Origin: Promethearchaeota archaeon | GTDB lineage: Archaea; Asgardarchaeota; Hermodarchaeia; Hermodarchaeales; Hermodarchaeaceae | Reading direction: 5' to 3' | Assembly (NCBI GenBank): GCA_048938295.1 | Contig: JBHLMI010000023.1 | Span: 28,790-46,555, forward strand | Length of the DNA: 17,766 nt | Part shown: one piece after another, positions 7-4,324 of the stretch | How the letters are laid out: the number at the start of each line of letters is the position of its first letter | How positions within the stretch are numbered: the stretch's first letter is position 1 | Made by a program: the position numbers and the translations under genes | Notes under the pieces: model-generated | What the model saw: the letters and a program-made list of their open reading frames with translations, nothing else | The model's database searches: none | Told to the model about the DNA's origin: nothing

Positions 7-903
7 ATGGAACCTAAAATCGTCATCGATGCTCATACGCGTCACACCACTAGAGTCCTGTTTTCACCGGATAACACCGTTTTACTATCCGCTGGGCAGG
101 ATAACCTAATTCACGCATGGACAGTTCAGGAGTGGACGCAACAACACACGTTTTTTGGCCACACAAACAGTGTCAACGCTATAGCACTCACTCCCGCTAT
201 GGATTTCTTGATCACGGGATCAACTGATAACACCGTGAAGGTATGGAACTATCATTCTGGGGACGTTGAATATACGCTTAGTGGACATAAAAAAACCGTC
301 GCGACAGTAGCCGTGTCTCCGTCTGGTGAATTTATCGCTTCAGGATCTTATGATGGCGAAGTAAAAATCTGGAACCTCAACACAGGTGCAGAACTCTTAA
401 CTTTGCCACAAATTGGTCGCAATGTTGGATCCGTTGATTTTTCCCCAGATGGTAACTACCTAGTAGGTGGAGGTCTTGGAAATGATATTTACCTCTGGGC
501 CTTCCCCTCAGGTGAACTCATCAAGCAAATCCATGGGCACGAAACAGCTGTCAATTCCGTACGATTCTCACCAAACGGTGAATTCCTTGGTTCACTTGGG
601 TATGAACAGACGCTGATAATTCGGAATACAAAGAACTGGGAGCAAGTTCATTCACTGAAATTAGAATCTCGGGGTATGGATCTAACCTTCACAGCGGATA
701 GTAAAAAAGTTGTAGCAGCAATTGATTATGGAGTGCGGATGTGGAACCTTCGGACCGGTGAAATCGATAAGCAGTTCGAATTACCGGTAAAGGGGGTTTA
801 TGCAGTGGATGTATCTCCCACGCGGCGATGGTTAGCTGTTGGTTCAGCCGACGGTAAAGTTCGAATTTGGGAAATTCGTGGAACTCGTCAAAAATCTGAA
901 TAA
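7..903 (+). CDS. WD40-repeat beta-propeller protein (about 7 blades, stand-alone)
   Basis: 298 aa with recurring GH...S.D..V++W units (GHTNSV...TGSTDNTVKVW; GHKKTV...SGSYDGEVKIW; GHETAV...; VGSADGKVRIW). No other domain is evident. Confidence 0.95.
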   Translation: MEPKIVIDAHTRHTTRVLFSPDNTVLLSAGQDNLIHAWTVQEWTQQHTFFGHTNSVNAIALTPAMDFLITGSTDNTVKVWNYHSGDVEYTLSGHKKTVATVAVSPSGEFIASGSYDGEVKIWNLNTGAELLTLPQIGRNVGSVDFSPDGNYLVGGGLGNDIYLWAFPSGELIKQIHGHETAVNSVRFSPNGEFLGSLGYEQTLIIRNTKNWEQVHSLKLESRGMDLTFTADSKKVVAAIDYGVRMWNLRTGEIDKQFELPVKGVYAVDVSPTRRWLAVGSADGKVRIWEIRGTRQKSE

Positions 904-927: not shown

Positions 928-1137
928 GTGATGGAATCCCTCGCCACCCCGGATTATAAATCCGGAAGGGTCATCGGTACTCACCTGATGCTTCCCATGC
1001 ATCTGCTGCGTTACTATTCCAAAAGGAGCGAGGGCGCCGTTGGTTAAGCGTCGCCCTCAGCCAAAAGGCAAACGCCAAGAGTAATGCCTAATCTGGAATC
1101 AGTAGTAACATCTTGTTAAGGGCGTTGGCTGCTTTTT
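928..1137. ncRNA. Candidate structured non-coding RNA or non-autonomous IS200/IS605-like remnant
   Basis: GC-rich multi-helix segment in a 316-bp gap between convergent genes. Perfect stems: 949-955/959-965, 987-991/999-1003, 1030-1036/1052-1058, 1071-1076/1121-1126. Long-range helix 1010-1020/1095-1109 with a 4-nt bulge. No convincing ORF. Family and strand unresolved. Confidence 0.45.
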
Positions 1138-1140
1138 ATA
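1133..1140 (-). promoter_or_regulatory. TATAAAAA box on the minus strand; the same bases form an oligo-T terminator-like run on the plus strand
   Basis: The minus strand reads TATAAAAA at 1140-1133, about 24-31 nt upstream of G1109, where the long-range helix starts. It cannot be distinguished from a plus-strand T-tract without expression data. Confidence 0.3.
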
Positions 1141-1219
1141 GTGCTTGTGTAACTGAAGGCACAAGATACCTGACCTGGTTTCATTCAGATTTCACTGTGG
1201 CACGAGGTTAAGGTGAAGA

Positions 1220-2395
1220 CTATTCTAAGACTTGGGTTATAGCTGATCGTACATCTGTCCAGCTAAGGGCAACAAGGATAGAGAATCCTACGTAAGAAGC
1301 ACCAAACCACCGCCATATAGCATAATCAATCCAATACAAGGCAAAATCATTCATATGGTTGGTGGCTGCAAAGATAACGGGAATAAGCCAAAGCACAAGT
1401 GCGAGACAAAGAAGTGGAATCGGAGGGCGTACCTGCTTTCGAATTACTCTGAAAAACCACCAACTGATAGTTCCCCAGACAAGGATCATTTGGACCACTA
1501 AAATTATGGTGAAGAAGTGCAGTGGCAGAAAAGCAGGCACAGGATTCGAAGGATAGTAGCCTTGGAAGGTAGCCGGAGCTATGACATTGTAGTAAATAAT
1601 GCCAAACCCAAACCAAAGAAATCCTGCAAGATTGGCGAAGAACTCAGGCAGGCTCGCTGCCAACATCATCGAGGGGTCAGGAATGGGCTGAGCAATGACT
1701 GTATGAGCCAAGTAGAGTCCAACTGCCCCAGCGAATATTAGAATGACGATTCCGACGCTCCTCCACTGATGCCGCAATATGAAGAAGATGAGAATCGCAG
1801 GGAGGGCAAACAGAAATGTTTCCTTGATGAGGAAGGCGATGGCGATGAATCCTCCGGCCAACAATGGTCGATCAGTCCATGTCCAATAAACAGCTAATAT
1901 CATGAAGGGCATTGCAAACAGGGCAATCTGAAAAAGAGGAATGACATTGAAAAAGAACGCATACTGAATGAAAGTCGCTGCTAAGGCTGCCCAACCTGAT
2001 CCAGTGATGGACCGCACAACTAAAAACGTAAGAACTAGGTTAAGCATTGCCACAAGGACACAAAGAACACTGAGCGGAAAAATAAAGCTGGGTCCTGCCC
2101 ATCCCGTTAAGAAGACTACAGGATAAAAGATCAAAGGTGTCCGATAAATCCGCAAATCCCCCAAGTCTCCTGTGACTAACGCGGCATGCCGCCATGCTGT
2201 ATAGAAGTCCTCTCCATGCAGCATATAATAAATGACGGTTTTATGCATTGTATCATCATCTAATGCAAGACGAGGAACAAAGTCAATACCCCACGAATAT
2301 GATAGAAAGATTACCCACACAATACTACAAAATGCCAAGAAAACAACGAAAGCTGCGACACCTTCATAACGGAGAAGTTCTCGTAAGGACGGCAC
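1220..2395 (-). CDS. Polytopic membrane protein, probable GT-C-fold (lipid-linked sugar donor) glycosyltransferase
   Basis: 391 aa, about 10 hydrophobic helices. Acidic DDD in the loop after TM1, an R.Y..P motif, and a later 'IAFLIKETFLFALP' (K-containing helix typical of GT87/PMT-like proteins). GTG start with AGGTGA RBS upstream. Confidence 0.55.
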   Translation of the reverse strand: MPSLRELLRYEGVAAFVVFLAFCSIVWVIFLSYSWGIDFVPRLALDDDTMHKTVIYYMLHGEDFYTAWRHAALVTGDLGDLRIYRTPLIFYPVVFLTGWAGPSFIFPLSVLCVLVAMLNLVLTFLVVRSITGSGWAALAATFIQYAFFFNVIPLFQIALFAMPFMILAVYWTWTDRPLLAGGFIAIAFLIKETFLFALPAILIFFILRHQWRSVGIVILIFAGAVGLYLAHTVIAQPIPDPSMMLAASLPEFFANLAGFLWFGFGIIYYNVIAPATFQGYYPSNPVPAFLPLHFFTIILVVQMILVWGTISWWFFRVIRKQVRPPIPLLCLALVLWLIPVIFAATNHMNDFALYWIDYAIWRWFGASYVGFSILVALSWTDVRSAITQVLE

Positions 2396-2519: not shown

Positions 2520-2825
2520 TCATTCAGTGCAACACTTACGCGCTAGCTGGCAGATACTGCACACGCCTTTGGTGATCTGCTCTTCTGAAAGAGAGCCAGT
2601 ACTGATTTTTTTCGCCAGATCATCAACCGTCTCTTGGACATGTCGGTCCAACACAACGGAGGAACCCCTTTCACCTTTCATATAATGAGAGATGGTGGCC
2701 TCTGTGGTCCCTAAAACTTTGGAGACCTGGACTTGGGTCATTCCCCCTTTAACTAGCGCTCGTGCTAACGCCGACTTGATCGCTGGCAGCGCTTTCCATA
2801 CCACATTTTCACAAGGAAAAGCCAT
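2520..2825 (-). CDS. Archaeal XRE-type HTH transcriptional regulator (COG2522-like), Cys-rich
   Basis: N-terminal PCE motif, HTH 'MTQVQVSKVLGTTEATISHYMKGERG', C-terminal CSIC and CC. The ATG at 2825 is 8 nt after GGAGG, so it is preferred over the TTG at 2831. Confidence 0.8.
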   Translation of the reverse strand: MAFPCENVVWKALPAIKSALARALVKGGMTQVQVSKVLGTTEATISHYMKGERGSSVVLDRHVQETVDDLAKKISTGSLSEEQITKGVCSICQLARKCCTE

Positions 2826-2858
2826 ATCCAAGACCTCCGTATCCGCTAAGGATTCATA

Positions 2859-2901
2859 TTAACATTGTTAAGTCTTGCTTATGATATCTAATTTAAGTCT
2901 T
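2859..2901. promoter_or_regulatory. Candidate operator: TTAACA-T-TGTTAA palindrome plus TTAAGTCTT direct repeat
   Basis: Perfect 6-1-6 inverted repeat at 2859-2871. 9-bp direct repeats at 2868-2876 and 2893-2901. Located in the divergent promoter region between the HTH gene and the desulfurase gene. Confidence 0.4.
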
Positions 2902-3049
2902 AGGCACTCACTAATCCCCTTATCCCATTAGTTTTTCACCTATTCTGTATGTGGAAGAAAGGCAACACTACCATGAATGTTTTCAAGGATAAGCTCAATT
3001 AGGTCAGATATTATAGTGATTATTAGGATGTATTTTCTGGAGGACTTGT

Positions 3050-4324
3050 ATGAAACCTGAAGATATGCGCCGGGATCTACCCATCACACAGCAGTACATC
3101 TATTTTGACAATGCTGCCACGACTCCAGTTCCAAACCCAGTCATCGATGCAATGATTGAGTACTTCGAGGAGTATTGTGCGAATGTGGAAAGGGGAGCTT
3201 ACTCCATTGCTGCTAAAGCCTCAGACATGTGTGATGCCGCACGAGAGGAAATCGCAACCAATCTCTTGCATTGTGATGCTGAAGAGTTCATCTTCACCAG
3301 AAATCAAACCGAAGCTGCAAACCATGTTGCTTACGCCTTAGAACATCCATTCCTCAATCGATGGAGCACCGGTTTCAAATTCTCACCCCCCTTGGTGAAG
3401 TGGACCCCAGAAAGCACAATCCTAACTACGCTCATTGAACACCATTCGAATTTCATGCCTTGGATGCGGTTAGCAAAACACGTGAATGCGCAATTCCACA
3501 CTATCACCCCAACAATGGAAGGACGCCTAACACCAGATATGTTTACAGAGGCAGTGGATGAAAATACAAAGCTTGTAGCGTTTCAACATGCCTCCAATGC
3601 TATGGGCACCAAACATGATGTTCATGCCATCATTCGTGCCATAAAGTCCGCTAATCCAAGTTGCCTTGTATTTATTGATGGGGCACAAGGTGCAGGGCAT
3701 TTGCCTGTTAATGTCAAAGCACTAGGATGCGATTTCTACTCCTTCTCAGGTCATAAGGGTCCACTCGGACCACCGGGAACCGGAGGATTGTACGCTCGAG
3801 ATGAATTGCTACGGCGAATGGCACCGGCAGAGGTGGGCGGTGGCGTTATTGCCTCGGTGACTGCAGACGATTACATGCTGCGGAGTGATCACCGTGCTCG
3901 ACGCTGGGATGCGGGTACTCCAAATATCATCGGGTTAATTGCCCTGGGTGCAGCAGTCAAGTATCTGAATCGTTTTGGTATTGAAAGGATTGCAGAACAC
4001 GAACATAAACTGACAGAGCATCTTCTTGAGGGCATCCGAGACATCCCTAATGTAATTGTCTATGGTCCAAAGGAGGATATGACATGGAAAGTGGGGGCTG
4101 TCTGCTTCAACATCAAAGGCTGGGTTTCACATGATGTTAGCCTAGCGCTAGATTCCCAGTGGAAGATCTTGACCCGTGCCGGACACCATTGTTGTCAACC
4201 CCTCATGCGACTTCTCGATATCCTTGATCAGTATGGTGGCAATGTCCGCTCCAGCTTTCACTATTACAACCTGATTGAGGAAGTTGATACCCTGATTGAA
4301 GCTGTCAAAACTTTGGCAGGTTAG
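3050..4324 (+). CDS. sufS: Class II (SufS/CsdA-type) PLP-dependent cysteine desulfurase
   Basis: YFDNAATT, EHHSN, IDGAQ, PLP-lysine motif SGHKGPLGPPGTGGLY, class II catalytic motif RAGHHC. GGAGG RBS 6 nt before the ATG. Confidence 0.9.
   Translation: MKPEDMRRDLPITQQYIYFDNAATTPVPNPVIDAMIEYFEEYCANVERGAYSIAAKASDMCDAAREEIATNLLHCDAEEFIFTRNQTEAANHVAYALEHPFLNRWSTGFKFSPPLVKWTPESTILTTLIEHHSNFMPWMRLAKHVNAQFHTITPTMEGRLTPDMFTEAVDENTKLVAFQHASNAMGTKHDVHAIIRAIKSANPSCLVFIDGAQGAGHLPVNVKALGCDFYSFSGHKGPLGPPGTGGLYARDELLRRMAPAEVGGGVIASVTADDYMLRSDHRARRWDAGTPNIIGLIALGAAVKYLNRFGIERIAEHEHKLTEHLLEGIRDIPNVIVYGPKEDMTWKVGAVCFNIKGWVSHDVSLALDSQWKILTRAGHHCCQPLMRLLDILDQYGGNVRSSFHYYNLIEEVDTLIEAVKTLAG

Follow-up and report, generated by a model that had tools for sequence, protein, structure and literature searches.

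Evidence for a conserved, single-copy structured RNA in a convergent gene gap of the Asgard class Hermodarchaeia

The 17,766-nucleotide (nt) stretch of DNA analysed here, referred to as the window, comes from an archaeal metagenome-assembled genome of the class Hermodarchaeia (2.5 Mb in 66 contigs, with the window on contig C23). Near its left-hand end, two genes that converge tail to tail are separated by a gap of 316 bp (904–1219), bounded by the open reading frame (ORF) ends of a WD40 gene at 903 and a membrane-protein gene at 1220. We find that this gap very probably harbours a single-copy, conserved, structured non-coding RNA that matches no catalogued family, a conclusion drawn from comparison of the sequence with its homologues. 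As far as we have searched, the RNA family is new and confined to Hermodarchaeia among the genomes covered. An earlier model-made reading of the letters of the window, here called the sequence-only reading, had singled out the gap as anomalously long and had suggested an undescribed archaeal RNA within it. The length is confirmed, the remaining tail-to-tail pairs in the window being spaced by 2–14 bp, plus one of 130 bp, and the suggestion of a new structured RNA is now supported by conservation, covariation, single copy number and the lack of any match to Rfam families or to tRNA, 5S, signal recognition particle (SRP) or RNase P RNA.

Conservation is confined to one block of the gap. When the gap was compared with its relatives by BLAST, only positions ~926–1165 aligned, at 69–85% identity within the genus; both flanks failed to align, and conservation drops sharply at ~1165. 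In the library used, the class is represented by 19 species genomes from two genera (18 besides the source genome), and BLAST matched the block in 11 of the 14 other genomes of the genus and in one of the sister genus. A covariance model found it in 13 of the 18, that is, in 11 of 14 in the genus and two of four in the sister genus. The five Hermodarchaeia genomes without a match provide no argument against linkage to the membrane-protein gene, because two lack that gene, two have the gene or its downstream region cut by a contig end, and in the fifth (G017) the absence of a match refers to just the 186 nt following the gene. Metagenome contigs with a gene homologous to that of the membrane protein yielded further, more divergent copies, and homologous contigs carry the labels Candidatus Hermodarchaeum yapensis and Candidatus Hermodarchaeota. 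A covariance model built from 21 sequences did not find the element in 132 genomes of other Asgard families.

Within the source genome, BLAST and the covariance model agree that the element is single-copy. Weak second matches of the model (on contig C26, and also in genome G001) lie inside a coding region and were dismissed as chance. A scan of the genome and metagenome contigs with a 17-mer pattern likewise gave mostly chance matches, the pattern being too short, along with three true homologues. A small-protein reading was also considered and rejected: short ORFs on both strands are broken by indels of 1–2 nt among relatives and, as these are not multiples of three, a conserved ORF is ruled out.

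Evidence for an RNA also comes from the pattern of base changes. The complementary segments listed by the sequence-only reading are all present in the window, and four of the helices built from them (P4 to P7) survive among relatives. The central hairpin P6 (GAGGGCG/CGCCCTC, 1030–1039/1049–1058, 10 bp with a variable loop) occurs in every homologue, and its distal half has been rewritten compensatorily in three lineages, as CGUCG/CGGCG, CCCAG/CUGG and GGUG/CACC. The helix P5 (GTTACTA/TAGTAAC, 1010–1016/1103–1109) contains three covarying pairs, in which U-A/A-U alternates with C-G/G-C and the G-U intermediates fall on the minus strand. Helix P4 (GATGC/GCATC, 987–991/999–1003) is conserved in the genus, while outside it the stem is weakly kept, by G-U pairs on the minus strand only. 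P7 (AGGCA/TGCCT, 1066–1070/1085–1089) is restricted to the main genus, and the CCGGATT/AATCCGG hairpin at 949–965 is retained with variable sequence. By contrast, the CCCT/AGGG and GATG/CATC nesting and the ATTCC/GGAAT extension are not conserved, and CTTGTG/CACAAG (1144–1165) is kept as sequence rather than as a helix, with GTG/CAC alone retained. Nor is the helix formed by AACGCC/GGCGTT and CAGCC/GGCTG (1058–1076/1121–1131), which crosses P5 and had been taken to imply a pseudoknot or two alternative folds; it lies in a freely varying 23-nt stretch, so that the pseudoknot is left unsupported.

In an alignment of 13 sequences from the genus, 89% of cells are paired and the covariation reaches 0.152, as compared with 0.091 in shuffles, of which none in 500 attained the observed value, and 0.02–0.08 when the partners were slid. 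The window copy itself folds with a z-score of −3.16 on the plus strand and −1.64 on the minus strand. No lineage departs from the common pattern in the pyrimidine strands on either side of P6, in the loop of P4 or in the predicted promoter described below. A contact between the P4 loop (GGAAG) and the junction (UUUCC) is possible, with one suggestive double change in contig L277; as a general feature it was rejected, for it fails in a GC-rich lineage.

The compensatory changes in P5 and P6 are also among the reasons why we consider it very improbable that the block is a DNA-level element, be it a regulatory region, a replication-origin box, the remnant of an IS200/IS605 end or of an omega-RNA/HEARO scaffold, or a decayed gene. 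Its right-hand part (1133–1165) probably does act as DNA, namely as a promoter. However, the element is single-copy, with synteny conserved across two genera and further lineages, it matches neither HEARO nor any other Rfam family, it has no TnpB, IscB or transposase neighbour, and its non-triplet indels leave no place for a conserved ORF. Two specific candidates of this kind were rejected individually. HEARO/omega-RNA (RF02033) is at odds with a single-copy element whose neighbours are WD40 and glycosyltransferase-like genes and which has no Rfam match. For a replication-origin box, the element is again single-copy, and no inverted ORB-like repeats or orc1/cdc6 context were seen by inspection of a window in which most ORFs are unannotated.

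Comparison with known RNA classes gave no assignment. Rfam covariance searches of both strands of the window and of 13 homologous loci, at gathering and E-value thresholds, returned no relevant match. Archaeal RNase P RNA (RF00373), archaeal SRP RNA (RF01857) and 5S rRNA (RF00001) are absent from the window and were rejected because the genes for all three lie elsewhere in the genome, on other contigs, with scores of 177, 123 and 77 bits, respectively. ARAGORN likewise predicted no tRNA for the window. With its 7 nt, the loop of P4 resembles an anticodon loop; a tRNA, including intron-containing or split forms, was rejected since no homologue has a T arm or acceptor stem. These results uphold the exclusion of tRNA, 5S, SRP and RNase P RNA in the sequence-only reading.

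Small nucleolar-type RNAs fared no better. A box C/D sRNA was rejected: GUGAUGG (928–934) and CUGA (984–987) are found on the plus strand in the genus and disappear elsewhere, in the sister genus as in further lineages, and no C/D family in Rfam matched. For an H/ACA sRNA, examined by inspection only, the ACA after P5 is unconserved on both strands, the distance from pocket to box would be ~20 nt or more, as compared with the expected ~14–16, and no K-turn was recognised. A riboswitch or 5′ leader was rejected on the grounds that the element lies 3′ of both flanking genes, and that the downstream neighbour elsewhere differs in identity and strand.

Transcription from the minus strand, under the control of its own promoter, is probable, judging from the arrangement of conserved sequence around position 1109. 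An independently transcribed archaeal small RNA (sRNA) gene would be expected to have a TATA box at about −24 to −31, a purine start and a T-run terminator; on the minus strand the sequence signals are compatible with this in all 22 homologues, with a geometry like that of the SRP and RNase P RNA genes. The predicted TATA box (1133–1140), which reads TATAAAAA on the minus and TTTTTATA on the plus strand, is the same in 19 of the 22 sequences. In all 22 the distance from TATA to the first conserved RNA base (~1109) is 22–25 nt, mostly 23; for the SRP and RNase P RNA genes of this genome we counted ~25 nt from the end of the TATA box to the RNA. The intervening 23-nt spacer (1110–1132), in which the GGCGTT and GGCTG arms mentioned above are found, is fixed in length and free in sequence. 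Its last base is T in nearly all 22 sequences (G006, G005, M168 and L272 being the exceptions), which suggests a pyrimidine–purine start site, and most of them have G as the first base of the RNA. The predicted start is the G complementary to C1109, at the head of the 5′ strand of P5 (1109–1103, within 1101–1109).

Abutting the TATA box is a near-invariant motif, GUGCC-N9-CAC(A/C)AGC-NN (1141–1165, minus strand), present in all lineages. Only for a minus-strand transcript would this 25-nt motif be upstream, and it is a candidate regulator site or TFB-contact site; a genome-wide search found it at this locus only. The sequence-only reading had marked out 928–1165 as one multi-helix non-coding element. 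The right-hand third (1110–1165), consisting of variable spacer, TATA box and upstream motif, is more likely promoter DNA than RNA.

The same RNA might instead be read from the plus strand, as the sequence-only reading had implied, starting near 926 and ending at the T5 run 1133–1137, in which case two purine-rich strands resembling Shine-Dalgarno (SD) sequences (GGAAAAGGAG and CCAAGAGG) would be exposed around P6. We regard this as unlikely, with promoter geometry, wobble positions and the behaviour of the ends making the minus strand the more likely choice, if not a proven one. Pairs that are A-C mismatches on the plus strand are G-U pairs on the minus strand and lie inside helices: at positions 5 and 8 of 11 in P5 and positions 6–7 in P6 of the sister genus, and further in P4, P3 and a small hairpin of the upstream motif, as well as in G014, G011 and G009. 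Plus-strand G-U pairs, on the other hand, are confined to the ends of helices and to P6 position 8, where the window and G001 have a mismatch whichever strand is read. A plus-strand RNA would need two to five internal A-C mismatches in the helices of the sister genus, whose copy is no better than shuffles on that strand (z = 0.09) as compared with z = −2.26 on the minus strand.

The ends tell a similar story. The octamer 1133–1140, which read on the plus strand would be a T5 terminator, is TTTATATA in contig L279, a TATA box without a T-run. A plus-strand transcript offers no explanation for the ATA that is conserved behind the T-run, for the conserved 25-nt motif farther on or for the variable stretch of constant length (23 nt) that precedes the run, and lineages without a WD40 neighbour have no promoter-like element in common at a constant spacing. 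The end that would be 3′ on the minus strand also tolerates replacement, G009 and G005/M168 having unrelated hairpins at this place. Within the GC-rich lineage, the 5′ end predicted for the minus strand pairs over 7–9 bp with a 3′ segment, which is followed by a hairpin, and in L272 and L273, two of the three members, that hairpin precedes a run of U5–6.

Several observations nevertheless weigh against the minus strand and should be set beside this evidence. The window copy folds better on the plus strand, by the z-scores given above, and most members of the genus have lower energies there. Counts of G-U versus A-C cells are near equal, at 52 against 32 in the model-fitted alignment and ~23 against 30 once two doubtful pairs are left out, and the genus alignment has 12 G-U cells on the minus strand as against 18 on the plus strand. 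Wobble pairs of plus-strand type occur at the base of P6 (G003, L277, L272 and L273). They are also seen at position 8 of this helix, where about ten sequences have U-G when read on the plus strand and the GC-rich lineage has C-G instead. The T-run, as CTTTTTA or TTTTTAT, resembles the runs that follow the tRNA genes of this genome as terminators, and an A-run with ATAA in the region of the WD40 stop lies ~27 nt upstream of P1 in the genus.

Unlike the tRNA-gene promoters of the same genome, the sequence upstream of the TATA box is not rich in A. Furthermore, the spacer of the sister genus contains CCCAG (CCUCAG in G015) 3–8 nt from TATA (L028:1654–1675, L029 and L279), a 5-bp complement to the invariant CUGGG within the CCUGGG of the P4 loop that sits inside a stretch modelled as untranscribed. 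The public sequencing runs listed for the region or element are sediment and soil DNA metagenomes, with no RNA run among them. Folding energies and raw counts of G-U versus A-C pairs do not decide the strand.

Transcription of the minus strand would also be consistent with a structured 3′ untranslated region (UTR) of the membrane-protein mRNA, acting in cis (on stability, localisation or termination) or processed from that mRNA. The element always lies downstream of, and co-oriented with, the membrane-protein gene while the other neighbour changes, and no run of at least four T on the minus strand separates the stop of that gene from the element in the window and the genus members read. The 5-bp complement to the CCUGGG loop in the sister genus, which sits beside a TATA-like motif, could pair only if transcribed. 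We nonetheless hold this origin to be rather improbable as the principal explanation. The fixed distance from TATA to RNA, the free spacer and the upstream motif are features of a promoter rather than of a UTR, and the distance from stop codon to element varies between ~27 and 184 nt and is unconserved. By analogy with bacterial 3′-UTR sRNAs that have internal promoters, the readings as a 3′ UTR and as an independent gene can coexist.

Beyond the start site, the predicted minus-strand transcript can be divided as follows. P5 is followed by a junction (1060–1100) that contains P7 and the pyrimidine motif CCUCUUGGCG, which occurs twice in the genus, the first copy in the window being a variant; its strand CCUCUUGG is invariant in all lineages, the most divergent included. 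The hairpin P6 (1030–1058) comes next, and then the segment 1010–1029, which combines a second pyrimidine motif (1029–1019; GCUCCUUUUCC in the window variant) with the 3′ strand of P5 (1016–1010). This second motif, as CUCC-U/A-UU-CC, is retained across all lineages. The segment 987–1009, recognised by its invariant columns, consists of a linker GCAGCA (1009–1004) and the hairpin P4 with its invariant loop CCUGGGAAG (1003–987).

The 3′ domain (~926–986) would form three hairpins, P3 (with loop ACCGAUGA), the variable P2 and P1. It is conserved in most lineages, whereas G009 and G005/M168 have unrelated hairpins in its place, a pattern to be expected close to a terminator. A candidate terminator is the first T5 run after P1 (890–894), which overlaps the last WD40 codons. 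Nearly all lineages read have a run of at least four T on the minus strand ~0–45 nt after P1, with none in G015 and L274; the run follows P1 immediately in G013, G011, L272, L273 and L277.

We tentatively propose the following account of what this RNA might do. Taken as a whole, the observations are on balance best explained by a minus-strand sRNA gene with its own promoter, whose product may regulate in trans by occluding ribosome binding sites (RBS). In this model, a single-copy gene co-oriented with, and just downstream of, the GT87-like membrane-protein gene would be transcribed from a promoter made up of the motif 1141–1165, the TATA box 1133–1140 and the 23-nt spacer. The transcript would start at ~1109 and run to ~926 or to the T-run 890–894, giving an RNA of ~185–220 nt. 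It would open with the closing helix P5, enclosing the long hairpin P6, on each side of which lies an invariant, pyrimidine-rich strand left unpaired (CCUCUUGG and CUCCUUUUCC). The P4 hairpin with its invariant loop would follow, and then the replaceable 3′ hairpins, which probably aid termination. The two strands resemble anti-SD sequences and could pair in trans with purine-rich SD-like stretches of mRNAs, thereby masking ribosome binding, and the upstream motif would give the RNA gene a regulation of its own.

The pairing step is the most speculative part of this model; it is our leading guess, yet as a mechanism in its own right we consider it less likely than not. Neither pyrimidine motif varies in any lineage, and both are single-stranded in the consensus structure; GGAG/GAGG occurs upstream of ~16% of crude ORF starts, as compared with 1% for the control CCTCC, indicating that SD-type initiation is in use. 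Yet complementarity between pyrimidines and purines is low in specificity. An exact-match search for complements of the conserved motifs gave scattered, patternless matches and no specific target, and a duplex search against the mRNA of the HTH and membrane proteins did not outperform its shuffled controls. It is just as conceivable that the RNA binds protein or serves as a scaffold.

In a more elaborate version of such a role, which we think improbable, the RNA would not be a simple antisense regulator. It would be a catalytic RNA, or would provide the RNA component or scaffold for a ribonucleoprotein peculiar to Hermodarchaeia, and would be functionally coupled to the accompanying lineage-specific cassette of a Cys-rich XRE-type HTH regulator and a GT-C-like membrane glycosyltransferase, with the upstream motif as the HTH operator.

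The genes around the element show how closely it is tied to one of its neighbours. On the left lies the WD40 propeller gene (7–903, plus strand, 298 aa, from the ORF call and Pfam), and on the right the gene for a polytopic membrane protein of 391 aa with weak Pfam matches to GT87 and PMT_2 (1220–2395, minus strand), which is the same-strand upstream gene and the sole constant neighbour. In every lineage with available DNA the element adjoins the 3′ end of this GT87/PMT-like gene, facing the same side, while the neighbour on the far side is variable: WD40 in this genus, a geranylgeranyl reductase or other genes elsewhere. The membrane-protein gene itself sits behind a small Cys-rich HTH gene (2520–2831 in the window, minus strand) and is divergent from a SufS gene.

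This order, with SufS on the plus strand diverging from the small Cys-rich HTH_3 gene and the GT87-like gene (window 2520–4324), is kept in the distant Hermodarchaeia contigs L278 and L279, so that the three genes and the RNA form a stable neighbourhood. On a metagenome contig carrying the homologue P0028, which was compared at the protein level only, a convergent methyltransferase gene begins 26 nt after the membrane-protein gene and leaves no room for the element. The element may be absent or relocated in that lineage, and its linkage may thus not be absolute.

Two further observations concern this membrane-protein gene. In the GC-rich lineage it is called at 474–508 aa (L272:1501–2925, L273:1501–3000 and L274:1501–3027) as compared with ~390–405 elsewhere, and the extended ORF crosses the RNA element on the opposite strand (the element lies at L273:2765–2919). 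The long ORFs are probably over-extended gene calls and not a real C-terminal domain. In the putative promoter of the operon for the HTH and membrane proteins (2880–2925, minus strand), GTGCCT stands a few bases upstream of a TTAAATTA box. The same GTGCCT opens the upstream motif of the RNA, which may be a coincidence or a shared regulator site.

Elsewhere in the source genome, the 3′ region of the 16S rRNA (contig C48, ~1306–1390) reads AAGTCGTAACAAGGTAGCCGTA and then continues with sequence unlike the usual end (GGATCACCTCC), which points to an insertion or an intron close to the 3′ terminus of the small-subunit rRNA. ARAGORN called 20 tRNAs in the whole 2.5 Mb, many with introns at unusual positions and some with implausible ‘introns’ of 430–1430 nt. 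The tRNA set of this genome is clearly under-called, as expected for the intron-rich tRNAs of Asgard archaea.

Among prokaryotes, the Asgard archaea are the closest relatives of eukaryotes known. A literature search found no description of regulatory or structural small RNAs in this group, though such descriptions may exist. With its single copy, its covariation and a precisely predicted promoter, start and architecture, the RNA is one that a metatranscriptome or an enrichment culture could confirm directly. The element could seed a new RNA family model for genome annotation, and its linkage to one lineage-specific membrane glycosyltransferase-like gene provides a concrete starting point for function. 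Restriction to one class makes the immediate impact moderate.

Several known systems share individual features with this RNA. Perhaps the closest in proposed function are sRNA154 and sRNA41 of Methanosarcina mazei, which belong to the archaeal sRNAs for which RBS masking has been proposed (review PMC5867862). Like these, the RNA described here is small, structured, conserved within its lineage and predicted to be transcribed independently, with exposed C/U-rich stretches complementary to SD sequences. However, it shows no homology to them in sequence or structure, is longer (~185–220 nt) and belongs to Asgard archaea rather than methanogens. Its pyrimidine strands are part of an internal loop that surrounds a hairpin, and not of apical loops.

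With regard to genomic arrangement, the nearest counterparts are bacterial sRNAs embedded in 3′ UTRs that have their own internal promoter, such as DapZ and MicL. As in those cases, the element lies directly behind a protein gene on the same strand, with an apparent promoter of its own and probably a shared downstream terminator. It differs in belonging to another domain of life, with a TATA-box promoter, and in that no Hfq-type chaperone is known to be involved. In the way it was detected, through conservation and covariation in a non-coding gap, it resembles the orphan RNAs of Rfam such as HEARO, GOLLD and the raiA motif, none of which it matches; unlike them, it is single-copy, has no association with mobile elements and occurs in one archaeal class. 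In these respects the RNA represents a new family within a well-known category, that of structured small RNAs specific to one lineage.

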